Positions 7,614-54,974 of a DNA stretch of 64,000 nucleotides are shown here, in pieces (the first letter of the stretch is position 1; each line of letters starts with the position of its first letter). The position numbers were made by a program, and so were the translations under genes. A model generated the notes under the pieces. The model did no database searches. It worked only from the letters and a program-made list of their open reading frames with translations, and had not been told where the DNA came from. Source of the DNA: Eledone cirrhosa (Eukaryota); assembly GCA_964016885.1 (NCBI GenBank), contig OZ024741.1:337156001-337220000 (forward strand), given 5' to 3'.

Positions 7614-7737
7614 GTAAGATTTTAATATGGATTCATTAATAATTATTAATTATCATGTGTATGTTTATTACTTTCTTTATTTCTTTATTTTTTTGTATTT
7701 ACTTATTTTTTAAAGTTAATTTAATAGAAAGAAAAAT

Positions 7738-11910: not shown

Positions 11911-13067
11911 CATATACCTTAGTTTCTTGAGTAGGCTGTTCTGTTGATCATATGACTGGAACACTTAATCTTCAAAACCAATGAATGTTCATTCCAATTT
12001 GTGTGTGTTGATGTTTTTCTGTATTTATGTGTGTGCTTGTATGTGTATGTGTGTGTATGTTTGTGTATTTAAAGGTTTCCAATTTGAATTAAAATCTTCC
12101 AACATAATTTTATATAAGAACCTTACATTAAGTTGCTATCTTAAGAATGAAATAATTATCAATTTTAGTAAATCCTTCAAAATACTTCATTAATTAATTA
12201 AAACAGAGTGTATTTTATTAGAAATGCAGTCATGAAAGGATTAAGAGTGTGTATATCTATGGAATACTCAACCACTTAATTGATAATTTAATAAGTAAGC
12301 TATTGTTCTGTCAACCGAACAACTGGATCATTTATAGTCAAAATCAACTGAGGTCCATTTATCTATAATCTACTAATAAAGTATACACTGCTACAACATA
12401 AAGTTAGCCAAGAGACAGCAGCATATAAACAATTTAGTATATATTGATTGTTTGTCATGTTAGTGTTACATTTTAGATTTGTTTATGAACTGGTTAAACA
12501 TCTGTTCTAGATTTATTTACACATTACTGCTCTATTTATATAACCATGACACTGTTGTTCAATTTTACTGGTTTCAGCCATTAGACTTCAGTCATGCTAC
12601 TGCACCACTTTCAATGGTTTTAGTCAACTAGATCAAGCCCACTACTTATTTCAGTTTGGTACTTATATTTCATAGATCTATCTATATTTACCAAACAGCT
12701 AAATTATGAAACATAATCAATAACAATGGTTTTGTTTGGCAAACATAAACACAGCCATAACATAAAAAACACACATGATGAGAATGATGGTGTGAATAAT
12801 GTTTATATATAGTGTGTATATATATATATTTATTTTTATATATTGTTATACTTGGGGAGGGTCATATTTGTGTAATAATATTGCCAGAATTAATAACAGA
12901 ACACACTCACTGTTTGGTTGGTTTTCGCTTCTGTATCTTTTATATCAGTTAATTTAATTTATTTGGTCCTCAATGTTACCATTGACTGACCAACGGTCAA
13001 AAATACAGATATAATATAGACACAAACACTTATATATAGTCTAACAAAGTCCTTTCGTTGCACATCT

Positions 13068-13739
13068 AGCTACAACCAAAGAGACAGAATCGGAGTATAC
13101 GAAGAAGCCACGGAGAAGTATTAGACCCTCATAGAACTGGACATGAAAGGAATTTGCCCATTATACAGGAGCAAATCATGGAATAGCTTAGATAGGACTA
13201 GACATAAGATAGGGAAAGCCACCTCATGGTACGACAACCAGAGATACCAAAATGTCATGTTTGTCGACGCTACCCCTGGAGGGAAATTAGCTAATCAGTG
13301 TAGAAAGGCCCTGAGAAAGACCCACTTAAAGATTAAGGTGGTAGAAAAGCCAGGAACCACCATAAAATCCCTGATCAGCAAAACCTACTCTTTTAAGAAA
13401 ACCCACTGTACTAATAGGAAATGTATTATATGTAAAGTAAACCCCCGGATAAACTGTAAAACTAGAAACGTAGTCTATAACATAAGATGTACAGAGGGTA
13501 CTTGCAGAAACATGACAACAACATACATAGGCGAGACACCTCGTAGCATAAGTGAAAGGATAGACCAACACTGGGGGGAACTAAAAGGACGAAAAAACAG
13601 TTCAGTACTATACGAACATGCCAGACAACAACACAACGGTAATATAGACAACATAGAAATTAGAATAATATCTAAAGATAGAAATGACCCAGCAGATAGG
13701 CAAATCAGAGAGGCCAGTGAAATAGAAGGCCAAGGCTAA
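13068..13739 (+). pseudogene. Penelope-like ORF C-terminus: RT thumb, Cys-rich linker, GIY-YIG endonuclease
   Basis: SYNQRDRIGVYEEATEKY*TLIELDMKGICPLYR...FVDATPGG...CTNRKCIIC...CKTRNVVYNIRC...TYIGETPRSISERIDQH...REASEI; one in-frame stop upstream of the annotated ATG at 13143. Confidence 0.88.
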
Positions 13740-14041
13740 ACAGAAAAAAATGAATGGAATAACAACAACACCCAAATAAACAATACTGACCTAAGAGAAG
13801 TATAAATAAATAAATAAATACATTCACAAGCACAATAACCCAAATACATATAAACACACACTAGTAAACTAAGATAGAATACAATAACCAATACACAGTC
13901 ACCCAAACACAAACACACATCAAACACTATAAACACATGCAAATGCATACGCAGAGAAGAAGACAAAAATAAATAAATATATAAATAAACAGACTAAATA
14001 AAGATGGCGTAGGCATACAATACAACAGGAGGAAACATAAT

Positions 14042-14090
14042 AGCACCACTGATGATGTTGCAGATGTGCAACGAAAGAACTTTGTTAGAC
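14042..14090 (+). ncRNA. Minimal Penelope-type hammerhead ribozyme motif (partly degenerate)
   Basis: CUGAUGA (14049-14055), U, stem II GUUGCA-gaug-UGCAAC (perfect 6 bp), GAAA, gaacuu; stems I and III weak. Confidence 0.65.
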
Positions 14091-14335
14091 TATAGATATG
14101 TGTTTGTGTCTATATTATATCTGTATTTTTTACCGTTGGTCTGTCAATGGTAACATTGAGGACCGAATAAATTAAATTAACTGATATAAAAGATACAGAA
14201 GCGAAAACCAACCAAACAGTGAGTGTGTTCTGTTATTAATTCTGGCAATATTATTACACAAATATGACCCTCCCCAAGTATAACAATATTTGTTTCGACA
14301 CACGATTTCATATCAAAAACCTCGCAAAACTAATA

Positions 14336-14439: not shown

Positions 14440-14577
14440 ATTTTATTTCTCATTTTTTCTGCTGATGAAGGACTAGTGTCCGAAACGTTAAGACCCTCTT
14501 CCTGCTATATCAAGCGTTAACCTAATATATATCTTCCATATACTGTACCGATTGTGTTGTTATTTCTGTTTACCTTT

Positions 14578-14580
<3 letters not shown>
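14440..14580 (+). mobile_element. Short repeat carrying a minimal hammerhead motif (probably Penelope pLTR-derived)
   Basis: CUGAUGA-A-GGAC-uagu-GUCC-GAAA-CGUU at 14462-14489; related copies at 9735-9858 (-) and 62380-62495 (+); followed by (TA)n. Confidence 0.7.
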
Positions 14581-14668: not shown

Positions 14669-17559
14669 ACTAACTATCTGTAACACTAACTTCAAAAAAC
14701 GAGACAATCACTTGATCACCTACAGATCAGGGGAACATACCAGCCAGGTAGATTATATCCTTACCAGAAGACGTAACAGAGGGACTGTTGTAAACACTAA
14801 ATCCCTCCCCCATGAAGAATGCACCTCCCAACATAGACTGATAATTAGCGACCTAATAGTCAGGACGAGACGTACTAGACAACAGAAGAGGACTATCCTC
14901 AGGAGAAAAATATGGAAGTTAAAGGACCCCACAGCCAGAAATAAATTTCAAAGCATATTACTTGATGCTTTCGACAGTAAGGAAGAGCAATTAGAGTCGT
15001 ACAAGGTAGAGGGACAGTGGGAATTCCTGAAAGCAAACCTGCTGATGGCGGCAGACGAAGTCTGTGGCTGGAGCAGGCCTGTAGGCAGGAGGAGAGTAAC
15101 ATGGTGGTGGAACAGTAAGGTGGAGGGGTCAATTAAGGCCAAAAAGCAGGCTTGGAAAGTATGGCGGGATGGGGGAAGCAGAGAAGACTATCAAGTGGCC
15201 AGGAGGGAAGCTAGGAGACAAGTGTACTTCGCAAGAAGGGAAGCAGAGGAAAGAAAGTTCAAGCATGTTCTACAACGCGAGGACCAAAAACGTGAGGTGT
15301 TCAGGATTGCTAGGCAATGTGTCAAGGAAAACAGTGATATTGTCGGGGAGAAGTGTGTACTTAATGATGACGGCGTACTTGCCATCACCGACGCTGATAA
15401 GAAGGTAGCTTGGAAGTGTCACTATGAAAGGCTACTAAATGAGGAGAATAAATGGGAGAAAGACAGTCTCCCCCACATCGACCCAATAGAGGGACCAGCA
15501 GTGTTAGTCGAGGGTAGTATAATAAGTAAGGCAATCAAAGATATGAAGACGGGTAAGGCGGCTGGGCCTTCGGAAATAGTTGCCGAGATGCTGAAGGCAT
15601 CTGGTACGGTGGGACACACCATGGTCACCCGGATAGTCAACCAAGTCATACAGAATGGGGTTGTTCCGAAGGACTGGCGTAGCAGCATCATCGTTAACTG
15701 TTATAAGGGTAAAGGAGATGCCCTAGATAGGAGTAACTATAGAGGCATTAAATTAATCGACCAGGTCATGAAGGTCACGGAAAAAGTAATAGCGCAACTA
15801 ATCAGAGAGCGAATTGATCTAGATGAAATGCAGTTCGGGTTTGTGTCAGTAAAAAGTACCACAGACGCACTTTTCATTGTACGACAACTACAGGAGAAGT
15901 ACCTAGCTAAAAGTAAACCCCTATACTTAGCTTTCGTCGACTTGGAGAAAGCCTTCGACAGAGTCCCCCGTTCCATTATCTGGTGGGCTCTTAGAAAACT
16001 AGGTGTTGATGAATGGCTTGTGAGAGCTATACAAGCCATGTATAAAGAAACAGTCAGCAAGGTTAGAATTAACAACGAGTATAGTGAAGAGTTTAGTGTA
16101 AAAGTTGGTGTTCATCAGGGCTCTGTTCTTAGCCCCCTACTATTTATTATTGCCCTCCAGGCTATAACAGTGGAGTTCAAGACCGGCTGCCCATGGGAAC
16201 TCCTATACGCAGATGATCTAACGCTCATAGCTGAATCAATGGCCGAGCTAGAGAAGAAATTCCAAACATGGAAGCACGGCCTAGAATCAAAAGGCCTTAA
16301 AATTAACCTGGCTAAGACTAAAGTTCTAGTTTGTAAGAAAGAAAATAAGGCGGCGGTCCCCTCCGGGAAGTGGCCATGCTCAGTGTGTAGGAAAGGCGTA
16401 GGTAGAAACTCCATTTTGTGTCCCAAATGCAAAGTATTGGTGCATAAAAGATGTAGTGGGATCACAGGTAAGCTAACTAAGAACATAGATTTTACATGTG
16501 GCCAGTGTTCTGGGGCAATAAGTAGCAGCAAGTGCCTACAAAATACTAGCTCTTTCAACTGCGCAGAGGGTTCTATAGAAATAGTGGACAGCTTCCGTTA
16601 CCTGGGTGACAAAATCAGCAGTGGGAGAGGGTGCTCTGAAAGTACAGTAGCTAGAGTCAGAACTGGATGGAAAAAGTTCAGAGAGCTTATACCGCTATTA
16701 GCCGCTAAAGGGTTCTCCCTAAAAATGAAAGGCAGGTTGTACAATGCCTGCATACGAACAGCAATGTTGCATGGCAGTGAGACCTGGGCATTGTGTGCAG
16801 AGGATATACGCAGACTAGAGAGAAACGAAGCTTGCATGCTCCGCTGGATGTGTAATAGTAATATACGTGAACGGCAAAGCATAAACGAACTAAGGAAAAA
16901 ATTAGAAATAAGAGGGATCAGATGTTGTTTACTCGAGAGAAGGCTACGTTGGTATGGTCACGTGATGCGCATGAAGGACGATAGCTGTATAACAAAGTGG
17001 AGGGCAATAAAGATAGACGGTAGCCACGGAATAGGCAGACCCAGAAAAACCTGGGACGAGCTGATAAATTCCGACCTCACACACTTACACCTCACCAAGA
17101 CAATGTCACTGGACCGAGACCTTTGGCGGTACTCAGTAATAGAGAAGACCCGCCTTACCTAAATACAAAGTTAAACCTACTACAGTCAGTAGGCATCTCT
17201 AACAAAATACACCCCCGTCCCACCACCCCCACCCCATCCACACCGCCCCTTTCAATGTAAAGTTATGTTGGTGCCACAACATCCAAGCCGAAACAAATGA
17301 GATCGTGTAGGTGTCACGTAAAAAAACACACAGTTCACGCTGTAATGTGGCCTTGTAGGCAACACGGTAAAAACCTCCCAGCCCCACACTGTAAATGTGG
17401 TTGGTGTTAGGAAGGGCATCCAGCTGTAGAAAACCCGCCAGATAGTCCTATGCGAGCAAGATAACCACTCTTGCCTCAAGTGGGAAAACCCTCCGTCCAA
17501 ACCCATGCAAGCGTGGAACACGGACATTAAACGATGATGATGATGATGATGATGATGAT
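14669..17559 (+). mobile_element. RTE-clade LINE, 5'-truncated, with ~400-bp 3' UTR and (GAT)n tail
   Basis: Starts within the APE C-terminus (ICNTNFKKRDNHLITYRSG), abuts (TA)n, and ends in ttaaacgatgatgat. Confidence 0.95.
14712..17162 (+). CDS. RTE LINE ORF (partial APE, RT, PHD-like Cys/His finger); open frame but N-terminally truncated
   Basis: QVDYIL, NYRGIKL, QFGF, FVDLEKAFDRV, GVHQGSVLSP, YADD, CSVC...CPKC...HKRC...CGQC, FRYLG, RLRWYGHVMR, GRPRKTW. Confidence 0.9.
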   Translation: MITYRSGEHTSQVDYILTRRRNRGTVVNTKSLPHEECTSQHRLIISDLIVRTRRTRQQKRTILRRKIWKLKDPTARNKFQSILLDAFDSKEEQLESYKVEGQWEFLKANLLMAADEVCGWSRPVGRRRVTWWWNSKVEGSIKAKKQAWKVWRDGGSREDYQVARREARRQVYFARREAEERKFKHVLQREDQKREVFRIARQCVKENSDIVGEKCVLNDDGVLAITDADKKVAWKCHYERLLNEENKWEKDSLPHIDPIEGPAVLVEGSIISKAIKDMKTGKAAGPSEIVAEMLKASGTVGHTMVTRIVNQVIQNGVVPKDWRSSIIVNCYKGKGDALDRSNYRGIKLIDQVMKVTEKVIAQLIRERIDLDEMQFGFVSVKSTTDALFIVRQLQEKYLAKSKPLYLAFVDLEKAFDRVPRSIIWWALRKLGVDEWLVRAIQAMYKETVSKVRINNEYSEEFSVKVGVHQGSVLSPLLFIIALQAITVEFKTGCPWELLYADDLTLIAESMAELEKKFQTWKHGLESKGLKINLAKTKVLVCKKENKAAVPSGKWPCSVCRKGVGRNSILCPKCKVLVHKRCSGITGKLTKNIDFTCGQCSGAISSSKCLQNTSSFNCAEGSIEIVDSFRYLGDKISSGRGCSESTVARVRTGWKKFRELIPLLAAKGFSLKMKGRLYNACIRTAMLHGSETWALCAEDIRRLERNEACMLRWMCNSNIRERQSINELRKKLEIRGIRCCLLERRLRWYGHVMRMKDDSCITKWRAIKIDGSHGIGRPRKTWDELINSDLTHLHLTKTMSLDRDLWRYSVIEKTRLT

Positions 17560-17588
17560 ATATATCTTTGGCGCTACACAATAATACA

Positions 17589-17997
17589 GAAGACCCGCCT
17601 TGCCTAAGTACAAAGCGAAACCTACAGTCAGTAGGCACCTCTAACAAAAATACACCCCTGTCCCACTACCCTCACCCCATCCACACCACCCCTTTCGATG
17701 TAAAGTTATGTTGGTACCACAACATCTAGTCCGAAATAAATAAGGTTGTGTAGGTGTCACGACAAAAAAACACACAGTCTACACTGTAATGTGGCCGTGT
17801 AGGTAACATGGTAAAAACGTCCCAGTCCACACTGTAAACGTGGTTGGTGTTAGGAAGGGCATCCAGCCGTAGAAAACCCACCAGACAGTCCTATATGAGC
17901 AAGACAACCAATCTTGCCTCACGTGGGAAAATTCCCATCCAAACCCATGCAAGCCTGGGAGATGGACGTTAAATGATGATGATGATGATGATGATGA
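17589..17997 (+). mobile_element. 3' UTR-only, more diverged copy of the same RTE family
   Basis: Aligns to 17143-17559; (GAT)n tail followed by (TA)n. Confidence 0.9.
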
Positions 17998-18829
17998 TAT
18001 ATATATATAATTATATATATATATATACACATATAAATACATATTTATGCATATATAATCATGTATATATATGTGTATATATATATATATATATATTTCA
18101 ATCATATCTCATTTTGTTTGACCCGTTTAGCTTGTTCGCTTTTTTGGCTAAGGTGGTTATTGGCCCTCTTAACCATTGTCTCAGCGTGTATGACCATTTT
18201 AACTTATGTTTATAGCTCTGGTATCTTCTTCATATCCATGGAGCACTGTCTGCACAATACAGAAGTTGCGTTTCACTAATTTCTACCCGCCGAAATGCGA
18301 TTCTCGCTAAATTTATATTTATATATAAATATTGAGTTAAGAACTCAAAGTAGTCTCTTACAATTAAATAGCTCTAAGAAAAAAGCTTTTCCGAGCTGTA
18401 CAATATAATTGAATAAACAAGAGAGATGAACACTAATATAAACATACATGTGTTCGAAACGTAAGGACCAAATTTGCTATGGTGAAAAAATACTAACTAC
18501 AGCAATATGGTTTGTTATCTTTAACTTTAAATATTAAATTAAGAAAAATCAAGAAAAATAACAGACCTATATTGGGCAAAACGCCTGGTAACAACCAGAC
18601 AGTATTGGGGACTGTCTCGCAACATCTTATTAAGTGAAGTTCTGACTTTTCTCTGCTCCTCAGTAGTTGTTGAGAAATTAGTGATCCTTTCACTTCTAAA
18701 AATATTAGAGAATGAATTGTGTGCGATATGAAATATCGCACGTGTCATTCAGAACCCAGCTTGTCTCGAAATTCCCTGCTGCTAAAAATAGCAGCTTGGC
18801 TGACAGGACATTAAAAATTAGCTCTACGG

Positions 18830-22661: not shown

Positions 22662-24594
22662 TCATCATCATCATCATCATCGGGTTTAGCGTCCGTGTTC
22701 CACGCTTGCATGGGTTTGGACGGGGGTTTTCCCACTTGAGGCAAGAGTGGTTGTCTTGCTCGCATAGAACTGTCTGGCGGGTTTTCTACAGCTGGATGCC
22801 CTTCCTAACACCAACCACATTTACAGTGTGGGGCTGGGAGGTTTTTACCGTGTTGCCTACATGGCCACATTACAGCGTGGACTGTCTGGCGGGTTTTCTA
22901 CAGCTGGATGCCCTTCCTAACACCAACCACATTTACAGTCTGGGGCTGGGAGGTTTTTACCGTGTTGCCTACACGGCCACATTTACAGCGTGGACTGTGT
23001 GTTTTTTTGTCGTGACACCTACACGATCTCATTTATTTCGGCCTGGATGTTGTGGGACCAACATAACTTTACATTGAAAGGGGCGGTGTGGATGGGGTGG
23101 AGGTGGTGGGACGGGGGTGTGTTTTGATAGAGATGCCTACTGACTGTAGTAGGTTTTTACTTTGTATTTAGGTAAGGCGGGTCTTCTCTATTACTGAGTA
23201 CCGCCAAAAGTCTCGGTCCAGTGACATTGTCTTGGAGAGGTGTAAGCGTGTGAGGTCGGAATTTATCAGCTCATCCCAGGTTTTTCTGGGTCTGCCTATT
23301 CCGTGGCTACCATCTATCTTTATTGCCCTGCACTTTGTTATACAGCTATCGTCCTTCATGCGCATCACGTGACCATACCAACGTAGCCTTCTCTCGAGTA
23401 AACAACATCTGATCCCTCTTATTTCTAATTTTTTCCCTAGTTCGTTTATGCTTTGCCGTTCACGTATATTACTATTGCACATCCAGCGGAGCATGCAAGC
23501 TTCGTTTCTCTCTAGTATGCGTATATCCTCTGCACACAATGCCCAGGTCTCACTGCCATGCAGCATTGCTGTTCGTATGCAGGCATCGTATAACCTGCCT
23601 TTCATTTTTAGGGAGAACCCTCTAGCGGCTAATAGTGGTATAAGCTCTCTGAACTTTTTCCATCCAGTTCTGACTCTAGCTACTGTACTTTCAGAGCACC
23701 CTCCCCCACTGCTGATTTTGTCACCCAGGTAACGGAAGCTGTCCACTATTTCTATAGAACCCTCTGCGCAGTTGAAGGAGCTAGTATTTTGTGGGCACTT
23801 GCTGCTACTTATTGCACCAGAGCACCGGCCACATGTAAAATCTATGTTCTTAGTTAGCTTACCTGTGATCCCACTACATCTTTTATGCACCCATACTTTG
23901 CATTTGGGACATAAAATGGAGTTTCTACCTACGCCTTTCCTACACACTGAGCATGGCCATTTCCCAGAAGGGACCACCGCCTTATTTTCTTTCCTACAAA
24001 CTAGAACTTTAGTCTTAGCCAGGTTAATTTTAAGGCCCTTTGATTCTAGGCCGTGCTTCCATGTTTGGAATTTCTTCTCTAGTTCGGTCATTGATTCAGC
24101 TATGAGCGTTAGATCATATGCGTATAGGAGTTCCCATGGGCAGCCGGTCTTGAACTCCTCTGTTATGGCCTGAAGGGCAATAATAAATAGTAGGGGGCTA
24201 AGAACAGAGCCCTGATGGACACCAACTTTTACGCTAAACTCTTCACTATATTCGTTGTTAATTCTAACCTTACTGACTGTTTCTTTATACATGGCTTGTA
24301 TAGCTCTCACAAGCCATTCGTCAACACCTAGTTTTCTAAGAGACCACCAGATAATGGAACGGGGGACTCTGTCGAAGGCTTTCTCCAAGTCGACGAAAGC
24401 TAAGTATAGGGGTTTACTTTTAGCTAGGTACTTCTCCTGTAGTTGTCGTACGATGAAAAGAGCGTCTGTGGTACTGACACAAACCCGAACTGCATTTCAT
24501 CTAGATCAATTCTCTCTCTGATTAGTTGCGCTATTACTTTTTCCGTGACCTTCATGACCTGGTCGATTAATTTAATGCCTCTATAGTTACTCCT
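22662..24594 (-). mobile_element. RTE LINE 5'-truncated copy, disabled (YADD changed to YAYD, small deletion near 24475); two 112-bp UTR units
   Basis: ORF 23168-24388 nearly identical to the 14712 ORF; (CAT)n at the left end, (TA)n at the right. Confidence 0.95.
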
Positions 24595-25879: not shown

Positions 25880-26175
25880 ATATATATTATATATATATAC
25901 ATATATATGTATCAAATATATATATATATATGATATATATATATATCATATATATACATATATATGTATCAAATATATATATATATATATGATATATATA
26001 TATATATCATATATATACATATATATGTATCAAATATATATATATATATGATATATATATATATATCATATATATACATATATATATATCAAATATATAT
26101 ATATATATGATATATATATATATATCATATATATATACATATATATGTATCAAATATATATATATATATATATAT
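25880..26175. repeat. ~50-bp TA-based minisatellite (about 5-6 units)
   Basis: catatatatacatatatatgtatcaaatatata...tg unit recurs. Confidence 0.85.
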
Positions 26176-26709
26176 ATACAAATAAAATACAGTTACTAAC
26201 TCATATTGATACCCTGCAATTAACAAGCTCAAAGTATAAATACTGAGCATTATATAATAATATATTTAGAAATAAACACAGTAAATTGTGTGTCTAAAAT
26301 TACGAGGGTTGAAATACCACATTGGTTTGATAAATTTAACCTGAAGCAAACGGAAGATATAGAATATATATATAGACCGTCTCAATAACTATTTCATCTC
26401 TCGGACAGATTAGAGATTTAATCTGTTTCGCCCTGAAAATTGTGTTTGTAACAGATAATCCATAGGCTTTCCTCAGCGAGAGATAAGATCAAATGGAACA
26501 AACACATACAACTAAAAGCCACATGAATGAATATCTCACCTCATACGCTGGACATTAGAAGTGGTGTGAGTGGTTATGCTAAAAATAATAGCCTTAATAC
26601 ATAGTTAGGGAACCAAAATACAAATAAAATACAAAGTTACTAACTCATATTGATACCCTGCAATTAACAAGCTCAAAGTATAAATACTGAGCATTATATA
26701 ATAATATAT
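26176..26709 (-). mobile_element. Candidate non-LTR retrozyme: 444-nt non-coding monomer plus ~90-nt terminal direct repeat, in (TA)n
   Basis: 26176-26265 repeats at 26618-26709 (one 2-nt indel); no ORF; central type I hammerhead. Confidence 0.75.
26394..26486 (-). ncRNA. Type I hammerhead ribozyme, predicted cleavage after GUC (between 26404 and 26403)
   Basis: Minus strand: UUAUCUCUCG-CUGAGGA-AA-GCCU(A)UGGA...UUCAGGGC-GAAA-CAGAUUA-aaucuc-UAAUCUG-UC-CGAGAGAUGA. Stem I 10 bp, stem III 7 bp plus A-U, stem II ~8 bp with one bulge, all conserved core nucleotides present. Confidence 0.88.
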
Positions 26710-26718
26710 GTATGTATG

Positions 26719-26755
<37 letters not shown>

Positions 26756-26779
26756 ATGTATATATCATATATATATATA

Positions 26780-26882
26780 TCTGAAATGGGATTCCTCCCA
26801 AGGGTCTTTGGAATAACATTACTTGATAGAGTTTGTAACTCAGAGATCAGAGAGTCACTCCAGGTAGTGCTACTACTTCCTC
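26780..26882 (+). pseudogene. Small fragment of another RTE-clade LINE
   Basis: SEMGFLPRVFGITLLDRVCNSEIRESLQV matches the RTE EMxFLRR...DRVRNxxIRE motif. Confidence 0.6.
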
Positions 26883-28696: not shown

Positions 28697-31598
28697 GGTG
28701 GTGGTGGTGGTGGTGGTAGTGTTGTTGTTGTTGCTGCTGTTGTTGGTAGTGTTGTTATTGATGTATATACTGCTGCTGCTGCTGTTAATATGATTATTGT
28801 TGAAGTCATTGCTGTTGTCGTTGTTGTCGTTATTGTTGTATTTGCTGCTGTTGCCATTGATGTTGTTGTCACTGCTGCTATTGATGTTATTGTAGTTGTT
28901 ATTGTTGTTGATGATGTTGTTGTTTTGGATGATGTTGTTGTTTGTAGTGATGGTGGTGATGGTGGTGTTGTTGTTTGTAGTGATGGTGGTGATGGTGTTG
29001 TTGTTTGTAGTGATGGTGGTGGTGTTGTTGTTGTTGGTAGTGATGGTGGTGATGGTGTTGTTGTTGTTGGTAGTGATGGTGGTGATGGTGTTGTTGTTGG
29101 TAGTGGTGATGGTGTTGTTGTTGGTAGTGATGGTGGTGATGGTGGTGATGGTGGTGATGGTGGTGATGGTGGTGATGGTGTTGTTGTTGGTAGTGATGGT
29201 GGTGATGATGTTGTTGTTGGTAGTGGTGATGGTGTTGTTGTTGGTAGTGATGGTGGTGATGGTGGTGATGGTGGTGATGGTGGTGATGGTGGTGATGGTG
29301 TTGTTGTTGGTAGTGATGGTGGTGATGATGTTGTTGTTGGTAGTGATGGTGGTGGTGGTGGTGTTGTTGGTAGTGATGGTGGTGATGGTGTTGTTGGTGG
29401 TAGTGATGGTGGTGATGGTGTTGTTGTTGGTAGTGGTGATGGTGTTGGTAGTGATGGTGGTGATGGTGGTGATGGTGGTGATGGTGGTGATGGTGGTGAT
29501 GGTGTTGTTGTTGGTAGTGATGGTGGTGATGGTGTTGTTGGTAGTGATGGTGGTGATGGTGGTGTTGTTGGTAGTGATGGTGGTGATGGTGTTCTTGTTG
29601 GTGGTAGTGATGGTGGTGATGGTGTTGTTGGTAGTGATGGTGGTGATGATGTTGTTGTTGTTGGTAGTGATGGTGGGGATGATGATGTTGTTGTTGGTAG
29701 TGATGGTGGTGATGGTGTTGTTGTTGGTAGTGATGGTGGTGATGGTGTTGTTGTTGGTAGTGGTGATGGTGTTGTTGTTGGTAGTGATGGTGGTGATGGT
29801 GGTGATGGTGGTGATGGTGGTGATGGTGGTGATGGTGTTGTTGTTGGTAGTGATGGTGGTGATGATGTTGTTGTTGGTAGTGATGGTGGTGGTGGTGGTG
29901 TTGTTGGTAGTGATGGTGGTGATGGTGTTGTTGGTGGTAGTGATGGTGGTGATGGTGTTGTTGTTGGTAGTGGTGATGGTGTTGGTAGTGATGGTGGTGA
30001 TGGTGGTGATGGTGGTGATGGTGGTGATGGTGTTGTTGTTGGTAGTGATGGTGGTGATGGTGTTGTTGGTAGTGATGGTGGTGATGGTGGTGTTGTTGGT
30101 AGTGATGGTGGTGATGGTGTTCTTGTTGGTGGTAGTGATGGTGGTGATGGTGTTGTTGGTAGTGATGGTGGTGATGATGTTGTTGTTGGTAGTGATGGTG
30201 GTGGTGGTGGTGTTGTTGGTAGTGATGGTGGTGATGGTGTTGTTGGTGGTAGTGATGGTGGTGATGGTGTTGTTGTTGGTAGTGGTGATGGTGTTGGTAG
30301 TGATGGTGGTGATGGTGGTGATGGTGGTGATGGTGGTGATGGTGTTGTTGTTGGTAGTGATGGTGGTGATGGTGTTGTTGGTAGTGATGGTGGTGATGGT
30401 GGTGTTGTTGGTAGTGATGGTGGTGATGGTGTTCTTGTTGGTGGTAGTGATGGTGGTGATGGTGTTGTTGGTAGTGATGGTGGTGATGATGTTGTTGTTG
30501 TTGGTAGTGATGGTGGGGATGATGATGTTGTTGTTGGTAGTGATGGTGGTGATGGTGTTGTTGTTGGTAGTGATGGTGGTGATGGTGTTGTTGGTAGTGA
30601 TGGTGGTGATGATGTTGTTGTTGTTGGTAGTGATGGTGGGGATGATGATGTTGTTGTTGGTAGTGATGGTGGTGATGGTGTTGTTGTTGGTAGTGATGGT
30701 GGTGATGGTGTTGTTGTTGGTAGTGATGGTGGTGATGATGTTGTTGTTGTTGGTAGTGATGGTGGTGATGGTGGTGATGGTGGTGTTGTTGGTAGTGATG
30801 GTGGTGATGGTGTTGTTGTTGGTAGTGATGGTGGTGATGGTGTTGTTGGTAGTGATGGTGATGATGGTGTTGTTGTTGGTAGTGATGGTGGTGATGGTGT
30901 TGTTGTTGTTGTTGGTGGTGATGGTGGTGTTGTTGGTGGTGATGGTGTTGTTGTTGTTGGTAGTGGTGGTGGTGATGGTGTTGTTGTTGGTAGTGATGGT
31001 GGTGGTGGTGGTGTTGTTGGTAGTGATGGTGGTGATGGTGTTGTTGGTGGTAGTGATGGTGGTGATGGTGTTGTTGTTTGTAGTGATGGTGGTGGTGGTG
31101 TTGTTGGTGGTAGTGATGGTGGTGATGGTGTTGTTGTTTGTAGTGATGGTGGTGGTGGTGTTGTTGTTGGTAGTGATGGTGGTGATGGTGTTGTAGGTGG
31201 TAGTGATGGTGGTGATGGTGTTGTTGTTCGTAGTGATGGTGGTGATGGTGTTGTTGTTGTTGGTAGTGATGGTGGTGATGGTGTTGTTGTTGTTGGTAGT
31301 GATGGTGGTGATGGTGTTGTTGTTGGTAGTGATGGTGGTGATGGTGATGTTGTTGGTAGTGATGGTGGTGATGGTGGTGATGGTGATGATGGTGTTGTTG
31401 TTGGTAGTGATGGTGGTGATGATGTTGTTGTTGGTAGTGGTGGTGGTGGTGGTGGTGTTGTTGGTAGTGATGGTGGTGATGGTGTTGTTGTTGGTAGTGA
31501 TGGTGGTGACGGTGTTGTTGTTGGTAGTGATGGTGGTGATGGTGTTGTTGTGGTAGTGATGGTGGTGATGGTGGTGATGGTGGTGATGGTGATGATGG

Positions 31599-31629
<31 letters not shown>

Positions 31630-34600
31630 GTTGTTGTTGGTAGTAATGGTGGTGATTGTGTTGTTGTTGTTGGTAGTGATGGTGGTGATGGTGTTGTTGT
31701 TGGTAGTGATGGTGGTGATGGTGGTGTTGTTGGTGGTGATGGTGGTGTTGTTGGTGGTGATGGTGTTGTTGTTGTTTGTAGTGGTGGTAGTGATGGTGTT
31801 GTTGGTGGTAGTGATGGTGGTGATGGTGTTGTTGTTGTTGGTAGTGGTGGTGGTGATGGTGTTGTTGGTGGTAGTGATGGTGGTGATGGTGTTGTTGTTT
31901 GTAGTGATGGTGGTGGTGGTGTTGTTGTTGGTAGTGATGGTGGTGATGGTGTTGTAGGTGGTAGTGATGGTGGTGATGGTGTTGTTGTTTGTAGTGATGG
32001 TGGTGATGGTGTTGTTGTTGTTGGTAGTGATGGTGGTGATGGTGTTGTTGTTGGTGGTGATGGTGGTGATGGTGTTGTTGTTGGTAGTGATGGTGGTGAT
32101 GATGTTGTTGTTGGTAGTGATGGTGGTGATGGTGTTGTTGTTGGTAGTGATGCTGGTGGTGGTGTTGTTGGTGGTGGTGATGTTGTTGTTGGTAGTGATG
32201 GTGGTGATGGTGTTGTTGTTTGTAGTGATGGTGGTGGTGGTGTTGTTGTTGTTGGTAGTGATGGTGGTGATGGTGTTGTTGTTGTTGTTGGTGATGATGG
32301 TGGTGATGATGTTGTTGTTGTTGGTAGTGATGGTGGTGATGGTGTTGTTGTTGGTAGTGATGGTGGTGATGGTGTTGTTGTTGGCAGTGATGGTGGTGAT
32401 GGTGGTGTTGTTGGTGGTGATGGTGGTGATGATGTTGTTGTTGTTGGTAGTGATGGTGGTGATGGTGTTGTTGTTGTTGGTAGTGGTGGTGGTGATGGTT
32501 TTGTTGTTGGTAGTGATGGTGGTGGTGGTGGTGTTGTTGGTAGTGATGGTGGTGATGGTGTTGTTGTTGGTAGTGATGGTGGTGATGGTGGTAGTGATGG
32601 TGGTGATGGTGGTGTTGTTGCTGATGGTGTTGTTGGTGGTAGTGATGGTGGTGATGATGTTGTTGTTGGTAGTGATGGTGGTGATGATGTTGTTGTTGTT
32701 GGTAGTGATGATGGTGATGGTATTGTTGGTGGTGATGGTGGTGATGGTGTTGTTGTTGGTAGTGATGGTGGTGATGATGTTGTTGTTGTTGGTAGTGATG
32801 ATGGTGATGGTATTGTTGGTGGTGATGGTGGTGATGGTGTTGTTGTTGGTAATGATGGTGGTGATGGCGTTGTTGTTGGTAGTGGTGGTGGTGGTGGTGG
32901 TGTTGTTTGGTAGTGATGGTGGTGACGGTGTTGTTGTTGGTAGTGATGGTGGTGATGGTGTTGTTGTGGTAGTGATGGTGGTGATGGTGGTGATGGTGGT
33001 GATGGTGATGATGGTGTTGTTGTTGGTAGTGATGGTGGTGATGATGTTGTTGTTGGTAGTGATGGTGGTGGTGGTGGTGTTGTTGGTAGTGATGGTGGTG
33101 ATGGTGTTGTTCTTGGTGGTGATGGTGGTGATGGTGTTGTTGTTGGTAGTGATGGTGGTGATGGTGTTGTTGTTGGTAGTGATGCTGGTGGTGGTGTTGT
33201 TGGTGGTGGTGATGTTGTTGTTGGTAGTGATGGTGGTGATGGTGTTGTTGTTTGTAGTGATGGTGGTGGTGGTGTTGTTGTTGGTAGTGATGGTGGTGAT
33301 GGTGATGTTGTTGGTAGTGATGGTGGTGATGATGGTGTTGTTGTTGGTAGTGATGGTGGTGATGATGTTGTTGTTGTTGGTAGTGATGGTGGTGATGGTG
33401 TTGTTGGTAGTGATGGTGGTGATGGTGTTGTTGTTGGTAGTGATGGTAGTGATGGTGGTGACGGTGTTGTTGGTGGTAGTGATGGTGGTGATGGTGTTGT
33501 TGTTGGTAGTGATGGTGGTGATGGTGTTGTTGTTGTTGTTGGTGATGATGGAGGTGATGATGTTGTTGTTGTTGGTAGTGATGGTGGTGATGGTGTTGTT
33601 GTTGGTAGTGATGGTGGTGATGGTGTTGTTGTTGGTAGTGATGGTGGTGATGATGTTGTTGTTGGTAGTGATGGTGGTGATGGTGGTGTTGTTGTTGTTG
33701 TTGTTGGTAGTGATGGTGGTGATGGTGTTGTTGTTGGTAGTGATGGTGGTGATGGTGTTGTTGTTGGTAGTGGTGGTGGTGATGGTGTTGTTGTTGGTAG
33801 TGATGGTGGTGGTGGTGGTGTTGTTGGTAGTGATGGTGGTGATGGTGGTAGTGATGGTGGTGATGGTGGTGTTGTTGGTGATGGTGTTGTTGGTGGTAGT
33901 GATGGTGGTGATGGTGTTGTTGTTGGTAGTGATGGTGGTGATGGTGTTGTTGTTGGTAGTGATGGTGGTGATGGTGTTGTTGTTGGTAGTGATGGTGGTG
34001 ATGGTGGTGATGATGTTGTTGTTGTTGGTAGTGATGGTGGTGATGGTGTTGTTGTTGTTGGTAGTGGTGGTGGTGATGGTGTTGTTGTTGGTAGTGATGG
34101 TGGTGGTGGTGGTGTTGTTGGTAGTGATGGTGGTGATGGTGGTAGTGATGGTGGTGATGGTGGTGTTGTTGGTGATGGTGTTGTTGGTGGTAGTGATGGT
34201 GGTGATGGTGTTGTTGTTGGTAGTGATGGTGGTGATGATGTTGTTGTTGGTAGTGATGATGGTGATGGTGTTGTTGTTGGTGGTGATGGTGGTGATGGTG
34301 TTGTTGGTGGTGATGGTGGTGATGGTGTTGTTGTTGGTAATGATGGTGGTTATGGCGTTGTTGTTGGTGATGGTGTTGTTGTTGGTGGTGATGGTGGTGA
34401 TGGTGTTGTTGTTTGTAGTGATGGTGGTGGTGGTGTTGTTGGTGGTAGTGATGGTGGTGATGGTGTTGTTGTTTGTAGTGATGGTGGTGGTGGTGTTGTT
34501 GTTGGTAGTGATGGTGGTGATGGTGTTGTAGGTGGTAGTGATGGTGGTGATGGTGTTGTTGTTTGTAGTGATGGTGGTGATGGTGTTGTTGTTGTTGGTA

Positions 34601-35209
34601 GTGATGGTGGTGATGGTGTTGTTGTTGTTGGTAGTGATGGTGGTGATGGTGTTGTTGTTGGTAGTGATGGTGGTGATGGTGGTGATGGTGATGATGGTGT
34701 TGTTGTTGGTAGTGATGGTGGTGATGATGTTGTTGTTGGTAGTGGTGGTGGTGATGGTGATGTTGTTGGTAGTGATGGTGGTGATGGTGATGTTGTTGGT
34801 AGTGATGGTGGTGATGGTGGTGATGGTGATGATGGTGTTGTTGTTGGTAGTGATGGTGGTGATGATGTTGTTGTTGGTAGTGGTGGTGGTGGTGGTGGTG
34901 TTGTTGGTAGTGATGGTGGTGATGGTGTTGTTGTTGGTAGTGATGGTGGTGATGGTGATGTTGTTGGTAGTGATGGTGGTGATGGTGGTGATGGTGATGA
35001 TGGTGTTGTTGTTGGTAGTGATGGTGGTGATGATGTTGTTGTTGGTAGTGGTGGTGGTGGTGGTGGTGTTGTTGGTAGTGATGGTGGTGATGGTGTTGTT
35101 GTTGGTAGTGATGGTGGTGACGGTGTTGTTGTTGGTAGTGATGGTGGTGATGGTGTTGTTGTGGTAGTGATGGTGGTGATGGTGGTGATGGTGGTGATGG
35201 TGATGATGG

Positions 35210-35240
<31 letters not shown>

Positions 35241-38200
35241 GTTGTTGTTGGTAGTAATGGTGGTGATGGTGTTGTTGTTGGTAGTGATGGTGGTGATGGT
35301 GGTGTTGTTGGTGGTGATGGTGGTGTTGTTGGTGGTGATGGTGTTGTTGTTGTTGGTAGTGGTGGTGGTGATGGTGTTGTTGGTGGTAGTGATGGTGGTG
35401 ATGGTGTTGTTGTTGTTGGTAGTGGTGGTGGTGATGGTGTTGTTGGTGGTAGTGGTGGTGGTGACGGTGTTGTTGTTGGTAGTGATGGTGGTGATGGTGT
35501 TGTTGTGGTAGTGATGGTGGTGACGGTGTTGTTGTTGGTAGTGATGGTGGTGATGGTGTTGTTGTGGTAGTGATGGTGGTGATGGTGGTGATGGTGGTGA
35601 TGGTGATGATGGTGTTGTTGTTGGTAGTGATGGTGGTGATGATGTTGTTGTTGGTAGTGATGGTGGTGATGGTGTTGTTGTTGGTAGTGATGCTGGTGGT
35701 GGTGTTGTTGGTGGTGGTGATGTTGTTGTTGGTAGTGATGGTGGTGATGGTGTTGTTGTTTGTAGTGATGGTGGTGGTGGTGTTGTTGTTGTTGGTAGTG
35801 ATGGTGGTGATGGTGTTGTTGTTGGTAGTGATGGTGGTGATGATGTTGTTGTTGTTGGTAGTGATGGTGGTGATGGTGTTGTTGGTAGTGATGGTGGTGA
35901 TGGTGTTGTTGTTGGTAGTGGTGGTGGTGGTGGTGGTGTTGTTTGGTAGTGATGGTGGTGATGGTGTTGTTGTTGGTAGTGATGGTGGTGACGGTGTTGT
36001 TGTTGGTAGTGATGGTGGTGATGGTGTTGTTGTTGTTGGTAGTGATGGTGGTGATGGTGTTGTTGGTAGTGATGGTGGTGATGGTGTTGTTGTTGGTAGT
36101 GATGGTAGTGATGGTGGTGACGGTGTTGTTGGTGGTAGTGATGGTGGTGATGGTGTTGTTGTTGGTAGTGATGGTGGTGATGGTGTTGTTGTTTGTAGTG
36201 ATGGTGGTGGTGGTGTTGTTGTTGGTAGTGATGGTGGTGATGGTGTTGTTGTTGGTAGTGATGGTGGTGATGATGTTGTTGTTGTTGGTAGTGATGGTGG
36301 TGATGGTGTTGTTGGTAGTGATGGTGGTGATGGTGTTGTTGTTGGTAGTGATGGTAGTGATGGTGGTGACGGTGTTGTTGGTGGTAGTGATGGTGGTGAT
36401 GGTGTTGTTGTTGGTAGTGATGGTGGTGATGGTGTTGTTGTTGGTAGTGGTGGTGGTGATGGTGTTGTTGTTGGTAGTGATGGTGGTGGTGGTGGTGTTG
36501 TTGGTAGTGATGGTGGTGATGGTGGTAGTGATGGTGGTGATGGTGGTGTTGTTGGTGATGGTGTTGTTGGTGGTAGTGATGGTGGTGATGGTGTTGTTGT
36601 TGGTAGTGATGGTGGTGATGGTGTTGTTGTTGGTAGTGATGGTGGTGATGGTGTTGTTGTTGGTAGTGATGGTGGTGATGGTGGTGATGATGTTGTTGTT
36701 GTTGGTAGTGATGGTGGTGATGGTGTTGTTGTTGTTGGTAGTGGTGGTGGTGATGGTGTTGTTGTTGGTAGTGATGGTGGTGATGGTGTTGTTGTTGGTA
36801 GTGATGGTGGTGATGATGTTGTTGTTGGTAGTGATGGTGGTGATGGTGGTGTTGTTGTTGTTGGTGATGATGGAGGTGATGATGTTGTTGTTGTTGGTAG
36901 TGATGGTGGTGATGGTGTTGTTGTTGGTAGTGATGGTGGTGATGGTGTTGTTGTTGTTGTTGGTGATGATGGAGGTGATGATGTTGTTGTTGTTGGTAGT
37001 GATGGTGGTGATGGTGTTGTTGTTGGTAGTGATGGTGGTGATGGTGTTGTTGTTGGTAGTGATGGTGGTGATGATGTTGTTGTTGGTAGTGATGGTGGTG
37101 ATGGTGGTGTTGTTGTTGTTGTTGTTGGTAGTGATGGTGGTGATGGTGTTGTTGTTGGTAGTGATGGTGGTGATGGTGTTGTTGTTGGTAGTGATGGTGG
37201 TGGTGGTGGTGTTGTTGGTAGTGATGGTGGTGATGGTGGTGATGATGTTGTTGTTGTTGGTAGTGATGGTGGTGATGGTGTTGTTGTTGGTAGTGATGGT
37301 GGTGGTGGTGTTGTTGTTGGTAGTGATGGTGGTGATGGTGTTGTTGTTGGTAGTGATGGTGGTGATGGTGTTGTTGTTGGTAGTGGTGGTGGTGATGGTG
37401 TTGTTGTTGGTAGTGGTGGTGGTGATGGTGTTGTTGTTGGTAGTGATGGTGGTGGTGGTGGTGTTGTTGGTAGTGATGGTGGTGATGGTGTTGTTGTTGG
37501 TAGTGATGGTGGTGATGGTGGTGATGATGTTGTTGTTGTTGGTAGTGATGGTGGTGATGGTGTTGTTGTTGGTAGTGATGGTGGTGGTGGTGTTGTTGTT
37601 GGTAGTGATGGTGGTGATGGTGTTGTTGTTGGTAGTGATGGTGGTGATGGTGTTGTTGTTGGTAGTGATGGTGGTGATGGTGGTGATGATGTTGTTGTTG
37701 TTGGTAGTGATGGTGGTGATGGTGTTGTTGTTGTTGGTAGTGGTGGTGGTGATGGTGTTGTTGTTGGTAGTGATGGTGGTGGTGGTGTTGTTGTTGTTGG
37801 TAGTGGTGGTGGTGATGGTGTTGTTGTTGGTAGTGGTGGTGGTGATGGTGTTGTTGTTGGTAGTGATGGTGGTGATGGTGGTAGTGATGGTGGTGATGGT
37901 GGTGTTGTTGGTGATGGTGTTGTTGGTGGTAGTGATGGTGGTGATAGTGTTGTTGTTGGTAGTGATGGTGGTGATGATGTTGTTGTTGTTGGTAGTGATG
38001 ATGGTGATGGTGTTGTTGTTGTTGGTAGTGGTGGTGGTGATGGTGTTGTTGTTGGTAGTGATGGTGGTGGTGGTGGTGTTGTTGGTAGTGATGGTGGTGA
38101 TGGTGGTAGTGATGGTGGTGATGGTGGTGATGGTGTTGGTGGTGGTGGTGATGGTGTTGTTGGTGGTAGTGATGGTGGTGATGGTGTTGTTGTTGGTAGT

Positions 38201-38909
38201 GATGGTGGTGATGATGTTGTTGTTGGTAGTGATGATGGTGATGGTGTTGTTGTTGGTGGTGATGGTGGTGATGGTGTTGTTGGTGGTGATGGTGGTGATG
38301 GTGTTGTTGTTGGTAATGATGGTGGTTATGGCGTTGTTGTTGGTGATGGTGTTGTTGTTGGTGGTGATGGTGGTGATGGTGTTGTTGTTTGTAGTGATGG
38401 TGGTGGTGGTGTTGTTGGTGGTAGTGATGGTGGTGATGGTGTTGTTGTTTGTAGTGATGGTGGTGGTGGTGTTGTTGTTGGTAGTGATGGTGGTGATGGT
38501 GTTGTAGGTGGTAGTGATGGTGGTGATGGTGTTGTTGTTTGTAGTGATGGTGGTGATGGTGTTGTTGTTGTTGGTAGTGATGGTGGTGATGGTGTTGTTG
38601 TTGTTGGTAGTGATGGTGGTGATGGTGTTGTTGTTGGTAGTGATGGTGGTGATGGTGATGTTGTTGGTAGTGATGGTGGTGATGGTGGTGATGGTGATGA
38701 TGGTGTTGTTGTTGGTAGTGATGGTGGTGATGATGTTGTTGTTGGTAGTGGTGGTGGTGGTGGTGGTGTTGTTGGTAGTGATGGTGGTGATGGTGTTGTT
38801 GTTGGTAGTGATGGTGGTGACGGTGTTGTTGTTGGTAGTGATGGTGGTGATGGTGTTGTTGTGGTAGTGATGGTGGTGATGGTGGTGATGGTGGTGATGG
38901 TGATGATGG

Positions 38910-38940
<31 letters not shown>

Positions 38941-41900
38941 GTTGTTGTTGGTAGTAATGGTGGTGATGGTGTTGTTGTTGGTAGTGATGGTGGTGATGGT
39001 GGTGTTGTTGGTGGTGATGGTGGTGTTGTTGGTGGTGATGGTGTTGTTGTTGTTGGTAGTGGTGGTGGTGATGGTGTTGTTGGTGGTAGTGATGGTGGTG
39101 ATGGTGTTGTTGTTGTTGGTAGTGGTGGTGGTGATGGTGTTGTTGGTGGTAGTGATGGTGGTGATGGTGTTGTTGTTTGTAGTGATGGTGGTGGTGGTGT
39201 TGTTGTTGGTAGTGATGGTGGTGATGGTGTTGTAGGTGGTAGTGATGGTGGTGATGGTGTTGTTGTTTGTAGTGATGGTGGTGATGGTGTTGTTGTTGTT
39301 GGTAGTGATGGTGGTGATGGTGTTGTTGTTGTTGGTAGTGATGGTGGTGATGGTGTTGTTGTTGGTAGTGATGGTGGTGATGGTGATGTTGTTAGTAGTG
39401 ATGGTGGTGATGGTGGTGATGGTGATGATGGTGTTGTTGTTGGTAGTGATGGTGGTGATGATGTTGTTGTTGGTAGTGGTGGTGGTGGTGGTGGTGTTGT
39501 TGGTAGTGATGGTGGTGATGGTGTTGTTGTTGGTAGTGATGGTGGTGACGGTGTTGTTGTTGGTAGTGATGGTGGTGATGGTGTTGTTGTGGTAGTGATG
39601 GTGGTGATGGTGGTGATGGTGGTGATGGTGATGATGGTGTTGTTGTTGGTAGTGATGGTGGTGATGATGTTGTTGTTGGTAGTGATGGTGGTGGTGGTGG
39701 TGTTGTTGGTAGTGATGGTGGTGATGGTGTTGTTGTTGGTGGTGATGGTGGTGATGGTGTTGTTGTTGGTAGTGATGGTGGTGATGATGTTGTTGTTGGT
39801 AGTGATGGTGGTGATGGTGTTGTTGTTGGTAGTGATGCTGGTGGTGGTGTTGTTGGTGGTGGTGATGTTGTTGTTGGTAGTGATGGTGGTGATGGTGTTG
39901 TTGTTTGTAGTGATGGTGGTGGTGGTGTTGTTGTTGTTGGTAGTGATGGTGGTGATGGTGTTGTTGTTGGTAGTGATGGTGGTGATGATGTTGTTGTTGT
40001 TGGTAGTGATGGTGGTGATGGTGTTGTTGGTAGTGATGGTGGTGATGGTGTTGTTGTTGGTAGTGATGGTGGTGATGGTGTTGTTGTTGTTGTTGGTGAT
40101 GATGGTGGTGATGATGTTGTTGTTGTTGGTAGTGATGGTGGTGATGGTGTTGTTGTTGGTAGTGATGGTGGTGATGGTGTTGTTGTTGGCAGTGATGGTG
40201 GTGATGGTGTTGTTGTTGGTAGTGATGGTGGTGATGGTGGTGTTGTTGGTGGTGATGGTGGTGATGATGTTGTTGTTGTTGGTAGTGATGGTGGTGATGG
40301 TGTTGTTGTTGTTGGTAGTGGTGGTGGTGATGGTTTTGTTGTTGGTAGTGATGGTGGTGATGGTGGTAGTGATGGTGGTGATGGTGGTGTTGTTGCTGAT
40401 GGTGTTGTTGGTGGTAGTGATGGTGGTGATGGTGTTGTTGTTGGTAGTGATGGTGGTGATGATGTTGTTGTTGTTGGTAGTGATGATGGTGATGGTGTTG
40501 TTGTTGGTGGTGATGGTGGTGATGGTGTTGTTGGTGGTGATGGTGGTGATGGTGTTGTTGTTGGTAATGATGGTGGTGATGGCGTTGTTGTTGGTAGTGG
40601 TGGTGGTGGTGGTGGTGTTGTTGGTAGTGATGGTGGTGATGGTGTTGTTGTTGGTAGTGATGGTGGTGACGGTGTTGTTGTTGGTAGTGATGGTGGTGAT
40701 GGTGTTGTTGTGGTAGTGATGGTGGTGATGGTGGTGATGGTGGTGATGGTGATGATGGTGTTGTTGTTGGTAGTGATGGTGGTGATGATGTTGTTGTTGG
40801 TAGTGATGGTGGTGGTGGTGGTGTTGTTGGTAGTGATGGTGGTGATGGTGTTGTTCTTGGTGGTGATGGTGGTGATGGTGTTGTTGTTGGTAGTGATGGT
40901 GGTGATGGTGTTGTTGTTGGTAGTGATGGTGGTGATGGTGTTGTTGTTGGTAGTGATGCTGGTGGTGGTGTTGTTGGTGGTGGTGATGTTGTTGTTGGTA
41001 GTGATGGTGGTGATGGTGTTGTTGTTTGTAGTGATGGTGGTGGTGGTGTTGTTGTTGGTAGTGATGGTGGTGATGGTGTTGTTGTTGGTAGTGATGGTGG
41101 TGATGATGTTGTTGTTGTTGGTAGTGATGGTGGTGATGGTGTTGTTGGTAGTGATGGTGGTGATGGTGTTGTTGTTGGTAGTGATGGTAGTGATGGTGGT
41201 GACGGTGTTGTTGGTGGTAGTGATGGTGGTGATGGTGTTGTTGTTGGTAGTGATGGTGGTGATGGTGTTGTTGTTGTTGTTGGTGATGATGGTGGTGATG
41301 ATGTTGTTGTTGTTGGTAGTGATGGTGGTGATGGTGTTGTTGTTGGTAGTGATGGTGGTGATGGTGTTGTTGTTGGTAGTGATGGTGGTGATGGTGTTGT
41401 TGTTGGTAGTGATGGTGGTGATGGTGTTGTTGTTGGTAGTGATGGTGGTGATGGTGGTGTTGTTGTTGTTGTTGTTGGTAGTGATGGTGGTGATGGTGTT
41501 GTTGTTGTTGGTAGTGGTGGTGGTGATGGTGTTGTTGTTGGTAGTGATGGTGGTGGTGGTGGTGTTGTTGGTAGTGATGGTGGTGATGGTGGTAGTGATG
41601 GTGGTGATGGTGGTGTTGTTGGTGATGGTGTTGTTGGTGGTAGTGATGGTGGTGATGGTGTTGTTGTTGGTAGTGATGGTGGTGATGATGTTGTTGTTGT
41701 TGGTAGTGATGATGGTGATGGTGTTGTTGTTGGTGGTGATGGTGGTGATGGTGTTGTTGGTGGTGATGGTGGTGATGGTGTTGTTGGTAATGATGGTGGT
41801 TATGGCGTTGTTGTTGGTGATGGTGTTGTTGTTGGTGGTGATGGTGGTGATGGTGGTGTTGTTGTTGGTGGTGGTGGTGATGGTGTTGTTGTTGGTGGTG

Positions 41901-54940: not shown

Positions 54941-54974
54941 GTTGAAAAGGAGTGGAAAAGATGGGAAAGACCAC

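Follow-up and report, generated by a model that had tools for sequence, protein, structure and literature searches.

Penelope-like elements (PLEs) are described as leaving insertions in which only one end has a tail and one arm is inverted and truncated (PMC8557442), and their Hydra clade targets TA repeats (PMC8557442). For PAc, a Poseidon-clade element and the only PLE to have been reconstituted, it was shown biochemically that reverse transcriptase (RT) starts at two internal sites, that both target strands are extended, and that RNA about 55 nt 3′ of these starts is required (PMC11167929). The hammerhead ribozymes (HHRs) of PLEs were reported with one nucleotide at the A9/G10.1 position, and a circular template for longer-than-unit PLE copies was proposed in 2014 (PMC4209133). 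The derivation of retrozymes from PLEs is already in print, and retrozymes are known from mussels. Why PLEs keep their hammerheads and how longer-than-unit copies arise is an open question, with the circle proposed in 2014 on one side and the ribozyme found dispensable in vitro in 2024 on the other, and it is this question on which the family of short hammerhead-bearing elements described here bears. In a full-text literature search with most subscription journals outside its coverage, we found no paper on such a family in cephalopods or on the twin hairpins reported below. The repeat annotation of Octopus vulgaris lists Penelope-like families, and its main text contains no mention of hammerheads or retrozymes.

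The window analyzed in this study is a 64,000-nt stretch of the Eledone cirrhosa genome (assembly GCA_964016885.1, contig OZ024741.1, positions 337,156,001 to 337,220,000 of the forward strand). A preliminary description had pointed to a non-coding island at 26176–26709, lying between TA microsatellites and carrying a repeat of about 90 nt at its ends, and this layout was confirmed. TA microsatellites are present on both sides, the terminal repeats (26176–26265 and 26618–26709) are 97.8% identical over 92 columns with one 2-nt gap, and no ORF of at least 150 amino acids was found inside the island; the GC content is 30%. The insertion consists of a 92-nt stub and one unit, has a single HHR, and has no inverted arm (Table 1). 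Its stub meets the TA tract at the internal TA-rich site of the unit and contains hairpin 1 a second time (26671–26692), and the complete unit terminates at the fixed long 3′ end of the family. The 444-nt spacing between the repeats, from which a 444-nt monomer had been deduced, is real, but the family unit is approximately 463 nt long, and the lower value is due to a deletion of about 19–21 nt that is absent from every other fetched locus. Loss of the 3′ arm of hairpin 2 is likewise confined to the window copy, and this hairpin is intact in 64 of 89 junctions. The closest relative shares 97.6% identity over 419 nt. Because the window copy has a single HHR and has lost its second hairpin, it is unable to release a 444-nt circle itself, and it is probably a dead, deletion-bearing insertion. 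We saw no sign of a host function for it.

Table 1. Features of the hammerhead-bearing insertion (positions in the window; unit coordinates U1–463 were taken from locus L002)
Feature	Position	Strand	Remark
Upstream stub, 5′-truncated	26618..26709	-	unit ~U370–463; partial tandem / pseudo-LTR
One complete unit	26176..26617	-	U1–463 minus ~19–21-nt deletion near start
Hairpin 2 remnant (unit start)	26602..26618	-	3′ arm deleted
Type I hammerhead	26396..26484	-	
Predicted self-cleavage site (after U234)	26403..26404	-	between 26404 and 26403; inferred from hammerhead consensus
75-nt PLE-type tail	26176..26250	-	between two fixed ends (short U387–389, long U463)
Hairpin 1 (GCTC...GAGC)	26227..26248	-	2 nt 3′ of short end
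TA microsatellite, target, 3′ end	26150..26178	.	
TA/TG microsatellite, target, 5′ junction	26710..26780	.	

Several other features were noted in the window. A long cadherin-repeat exon of protocadherin-like type lies at 5214–7625 (+), and the insertion may be located antisense in a downstream intron of this gene. Related LINE copies encoding an RT and a PHD finger occupy 14670–18006 (+) and 23168–24496 (−); the former ends in a two-copy tandem of 443 nt with a (GAT)n tail, which is unrelated to the hammerhead unit despite its similar period. Another LINE, with an APE endonuclease, an RT, and a zf-RVT domain in three frames, is found at 51522–56558 (−). The minus strand of a 14.6-kb array of a 30-nt unit (28928–43584, 487 copies) contains open frames of great length, and this array is possibly a mucin-like exon.

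The complete type I hammerhead that had been placed in the middle of the unit is present on the minus strand, a strand not given previously. Helix I has 8–10 bp (26484–26477 with 26403–26396), helix II has 4 bp plus an extension, helix III has 8 bp, and the core sequences CUGAGGA and GAAA are at 26476–26470 and 26429–26426, respectively. For the 96-nt HHR stretch, the hammerhead shape was the minimum-energy structure, with a z-score of −3.44 that was equalled by only 1 of 200 shuffles. Its completeness has to be qualified, however. In the standard numbering scheme for hammerheads, two unpaired nucleotides (26469–26468) lie between A9 and G10.1, and no hit was obtained across the window with Rfam at gathering thresholds. 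At least 2 nt occur at this position in 138 of 140 family segments; the two extra core nucleotides are thus family-wide, and the hammerhead is predicted to be intact. The HHR core itself is intact in 114 of the 140 segments. Among 15 family sequences, 96% of the helix cells pair, and no compensatory change was detected, that is, no pair was altered on both sides. Folding of the monomer as a circle gave z-scores of −1.70 and −1.63, with 58% of nucleotides paired versus 60% in 40 shuffles, an unremarkable fold that speaks, if anything, against a circular template. Splice-like donor and acceptor sites were seen by eye on either side of the HHR.

The monomer is multicopy in its own genome. A DNA search returned at least 83 matches (40 of 2103 candidates scored), and exact patterns for the core, the HHR, and the tail matched 71, 124, and 360 times, respectively, with zero matches for each control; the copies are dispersed, non-coding, and in most cases exceed one unit in length. 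Insertion architecture was counted in 123 distinct insertions from loci L001–L143 and in a larger set of 164, of which three were dropped because they were cut by a locus edge (161 retained). Since the loci were picked by similarity or motif, these sets are biased to long, HHR-bearing copies, and 47 insertions picked by the tail alone served as a check sample. The segments fall into subfamilies A (95 segments) and B (31 segments), which differ in 5 of 92 columns of the HHR, 1 of 74 of the tail, and 4 of 40 of the unit start, but in 23 of 110 and 19 of 87 columns (21–22%) of the two spacers. Because A and B differ far less in the HHR and tail than in the spacers, this comparison indicates that both parts are under selection in the family. 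Sister families share a related tail motif (2925 matches, control 0) and have non-coding units of about 490–520 nt in which the HHR core is kept with different helices, and they thereby provide the evidence of helix change that is absent within the family. One sister copy of about 518 nt is located in the window at 18308–18825 (−); it has the same tail motif and is 92.7% identical to the copy at L188, and in its hammerhead at 18663, GAAA is replaced by GAGA.

At the TA-rich site of the unit (U389), a tRNA-like SINE is inserted in antisense in 38 of 111 passes and 32 of 91 loci. It has a fixed 3′ end and varying 5′ truncations (L002, L021, L034, L035, L048, L056, L061, and others), and in several loci one pass carries the SINE and the other does not. 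U389 is therefore a strong insertion hot spot. We take this SINE to resemble the known tRNA-derived SINEs of octopuses. A "long subfamily" with about 185 additional nt was considered and rejected, because it is this SINE with differing truncations. About a dozen more hammerhead-bearing repeat families were seen in the same TA tracts, often nested (loci L001–L194). A separate small hammerhead-like motif at 14462 in the window (14450–14580, +) comes from another repeat family, which ends in TA and has relatives at L024, L075, L109, L112, and L120.

The insertions have a regular architecture. Both orientations occur within 93 of the 123 insertions, the inverted arm being 5′-truncated, and a tail-to-start junction, which produces a partial tandem or pseudo-LTR, is present in 67. 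Among 269 outward arms from the 161 insertions, 139 start at U452–463 and 94 at U368–392, with 36 elsewhere; where an insertion has two arms, one of each start is present in 76 of 109 cases and in 22 of 25 among the loci picked by the tail alone. The family thus has two fixed 3′ ends 75 nt apart and scattered 5′ ends. The sequence following U463 is of TA type in 73 cases, the next unit in 69, and other sequence in 18. As judged from these positions, the insertions fit the tail and the two-start, both-strand priming of PLEs. The preliminary description had interpreted the start of the window copy as a circularly permuted one; because 233 of the 269 outward arms have their start at one of two fixed positions, the apparent permutation reflects fixed priming sites instead.

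Each of the two fixed ends is closely followed on its 3′ side by a hairpin with the motif RCTC...GAGY, an arrangement that the family shares with its sister families and with a coding PLE of the Hydra clade. With anchors set by eye, and with rows that represent related families rather than independent counts, the motif follows start 1 (the short end) in 15 of 18 rows and is missing from three, and it follows start 2 (the long end) in 11 of 12 rows, 10 of them fully paired; the one miss is the window copy. The loops are 9–24 nt long, the chance expectation is 36 of 8000 positions, and the motif is absent from both of the Neptune-type tails compared. The prediction that a neighbouring PLE family would have a second hairpin beyond its tail was tested and borne out, with 148 matches and none for the control. 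An RT ORF follows in all seven fetched loci of that family (L195–L201) and is open to the locus edge, about 500 codons, in five. The RWR and DKT motifs and the CxCX5C linker of this RT match the Hydra clade; two other Hydra-type RT ORFs gave no Pfam hit. Accordingly we infer that the hairpins are start signals.

Because the coding Hydra family shares both the two-hairpin layout and the TA target, the helper of the non-coding units would rather likely be a Hydra-clade PLE. No coding Hydra repeat with direct homology to the unit beyond the hairpin motif was found, and the fetched loci contained no autonomous element with the unit's own sequence. Direct fusions with three different PLE clades also count against the scheme: where a junction has little or no microsatellite, the unit is fused to a Poseidon-, Neptune-, or Hydra-type fragment. 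In two such fusions (L089:660–2760 and L188:530–1900), Hydra-type ORF fragments directly abut the 5′ end of a non-coding unit on the same strand, no TA tract lying between them, and these joins are possibly template switches between helper and parasite RNA. PLE protein hits occurred in 52 of 183 loci, and we attribute them to the shared TA target. Coding PLEs beside L008/L031, L064–L067, and L121 were considered as the element's own ORF and rejected, as the coding elements inspected carry their own repeats. The PLEs of the window had been named as candidate helpers. The PLE at 12850–14290 (+) is 5′-truncated, retains the thumb and GIY-YIG portion (13125–13739), and has a hammerhead-like motif of its own near 14050, a tail of about 52 nt, and an inverted arm; its CX4CxxC linker is of Neptune/Nematis type by the description in PMC8557442. 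With such a linker and a tail lacking the shared hairpin, this fragment is a poor candidate.

From its signals and insertion structure, the family is very probably a non-autonomous PLE-type element, and this part is common to the circular and linear models discussed below. Its unit would carry cis-acting signals only, in the order hairpin 2, spacer, hammerhead, spacer, start 1, hairpin 1, tail, and start 2. A PLE protein acting in trans, most likely of the Hydra clade, would cut both strands of a TA repeat, and reverse transcription would be primed internally at two positions, both located a few bases 5′ to an RCTC...GAGY hairpin. The two 5′-truncated cDNA arms would then be joined to give one tailed and one untailed end, often as an inversion. 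The simplest template would be a monomer circle, which would be excised when both hammerheads of one of the rare two-unit loci cleave, then religated and copied for 1 to 1.4 rounds. We regard copying from such a circle as the best explanation of the sequences and, guardedly, as a probable one.

Two alternatives would dispense with this scheme. The copies could be solo pseudo-LTRs derived from a 5′-truncated, unsampled coding PLE; truncated PLE ends are common in the genome, and the family was only partly fetched (164 insertions, compared with 360 exact tail matches). We consider this highly improbable, because a coding element would continue from its tail into the ORF, as the Hydra family does, but here the tail runs into the unit's own start in those 67 of 123 insertions. 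In 71 of 76 cases the sequence before U1 is the family's tail, neither unit junction was found to contain an ORF, and no RT or GIY-YIG ORF was natively attached in the sampled loci. The unit was thus never found as the native repeat of a coding ORF, contrary to the possibility that it always occurs as the pseudo-LTR of a coding Penelope ORF. The other alternative is a classical non-LTR retrozyme, in which arrays of HHR units yield circles in abundance, from which the dispersed copies descend. It agrees with the type I HHR, the non-coding sequence of 30% GC, and the co-occurring PLEs, and monomer-rich retrozyme families have been reported (bioRxiv 2026.07.22.740005). Nevertheless, the tandem-array form that defines such retrozymes, the candidate class named in the preliminary description, is lacking: no array of three or more HHR units was found in 71 of 71 core matches, in the 100 HHR matches listed of 124, or in the 161 insertions. 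All seven close pairs among the 71 core matches are inverted and none is on the same strand; same-strand close HHR pairs numbered three among the matches listed (100 of 124). Two same-strand HHRs occur in 5 of the 123 insertions, one of them doubtful (L122), and three occur in none. The longest tandem found, about 2.5 units in a diverged subfamily (L203:1865–3195), lacks helix III and the cleavage site in both complete units. It was rejected as evidence of rolling, since two passes share a rearrangement missing from the first, which suggests a local duplication. An array-based retrozyme is therefore very improbable.

The more serious alternative keeps the same PLE-type element but has as template linear, uncleaved, longer-than-unit transcripts of rare multi-junction masters; the hammerhead would trim RNA or bind protein, no circle would form, and the tandems would be renewed by insertion into the TA-rich site of the unit or by template jumps. 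The arms run through the cleavage site, and cleaved linear RNA was therefore not the usual template: a stop within 10 nt of that site is seen in none of the 86 arms with a long start and in 6 of the 66 with a short start, and only 3 of 200 truncation points lie within 6 nt of it. As hairpin 2 lies beyond start 2, the template probably continued past the end of the insertion, which modestly favours a circle over a linear multimer. By analogy with the RNA requirement of PAc, hairpin 2 may be needed for start 2, and if so, a single junction suffices for a wrapped long-start arm on a circular RNA, whereas a linear RNA must contain two. Two junctions on one strand were found in 0 of 100 junction-bearing strands. 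Genome-wide exact patterns, which differ in stringency and miss SINE-bearing units, gave 2 two-junction loci versus 41 TA-ended wrapped copies in the family, both loci in diverged subfamilies and none in subfamily A or B, and 1 versus 45 in a sister family. Under the linear model, moreover, each priming leaves the downstream hairpin out, and lineages would shorten with every generation. This model would also have a stable monomer-type HHR kept in divergent non-coding families, yet without a pile-up of cleaved ends, whereas a circle would explain the conservation of such a ribozyme. We infer both HHR activity and an RNA circle.

Other observations favour the linear template. Wrapped arms pass the second cleavage site in only 6 of 67 cases, below the expectation for free rolling, and arms longer than about 650 nt are rare (2 of 139); the circular model therefore needs a barrier to strand displacement. 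To our knowledge, PLE RTs lack RNase H. Two-junction loci do exist, and masters may be rare or lost; the SINE in 32 of 91 loci marks the internal TA-rich site as an easy target, where self-insertion could regenerate tandems. For PAc, HHR mutants insert normally in vitro, the main template is uncleaved RNA, no RNA-seq reads end at the cleavage site, and a multi-copy mRNA and insertion into its own pseudo-LTR were proposed (PMC11167929). Similarity of repeats within a locus fits a circle and a tandem master equally well: subfamily variants are shared 201 times versus 52 by chance in 57 direct pairs and 668 versus 177 in 110 inverted pairs, without consistent polarised differences. The 2-nt indel between the repeats of the window copy was rejected as counter-evidence to a circle, because it recurs in eight segments and at both positions. 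Weighing these points, we consider the linear model a real possibility but an unlikely one. The reading of the window copy as an insertion derived from a circular RNA accordingly stands with a slight preference, but the idea itself has existed for PLEs since 2014 (PMC4209133).

These results can be extended, tentatively, to a twin-hairpin code, in which the two subunits of a dimeric RT-endonuclease would each have an RCTC...GAGY hairpin of their own and start a few bases 5′ to it. Since the 3′ end never receives a copy of the second hairpin, the elements would depend on a hammerhead-made circle as template. The code would apply to Hydra-clade PLEs and to their non-coding parasites of about 460–520 nt, with thousands of copies in the genome. 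If true, the family would be a retrozyme that is dispersed and free of arrays, and it would give direct evidence from a genome for a circular PLE cycle. A non-coding 463-nt unit that retains nothing but the hammerhead and two hairpins, together with a coding family of the Hydra clade that has the same layout and long open frames, constitutes a minimal system for testing a circular against a linear template. The family would also connect retrozymes with one particular clade of PLEs, and it indicates that small elements form an abundant superfamily in this genome.

Among known systems, non-LTR retrozymes share with this family a short, non-coding, low-GC unit, a type I hammerhead, non-autonomy, a relation to PLEs, and a proposed circular template (PMC7229834; bioRxiv 10.64898/2026.07.22.740005). 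Unlike them, the family is dispersed, has at most two HHRs per insertion, is not arrayed, and shows the full two-arm, tailed structure of a PLE insertion. Its unit of about 463 nt exceeds the 170–400 nt given for retrozymes in PMC7229834 but is within the range of 51–972 nt in bioRxiv 2026.07.22.740005, and its helix III has 8 bp, compared with 1–2 bp in most metazoan type I HHRs. By the tandem criterion of the latter report, at least two consecutive HHR units, the family falls outside active non-LTR retrozymes. Hydra-clade PLEs with an endonuclease (EN+) resemble it in their TA-repeat target, a hammerhead upstream of the tail, and a partial tandem with an inverted arm (PMC8557442), and the coding Hydra PLE analyzed here has twin hairpins at the same offsets from both ends; unlike them, the family has no ORF. 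The tail is 75 nt in the family, about 88–95 nt in the Hydra-linked families of this genome, and 30–40 nt in PMC8557442. PAc of Anolis is similar in having two internal RT starts that define a tail, extension of both strands, an AT-rich target, an HHR upstream of the starts, and a need for RNA 3′ of the start, but it is autonomous, belongs to another clade, starts in an AC-rich stem-loop within its ORF, and has an HHR that needs protein (PMC11167929). Non-autonomous PLEs of Chlamys such as MRC1 are, like this family, non-coding, pseudo-LTR-forming, and PLE-dependent (PMC8557442). Overall, the family behaves as a non-autonomous PLE would and may also act as a retrozyme does.
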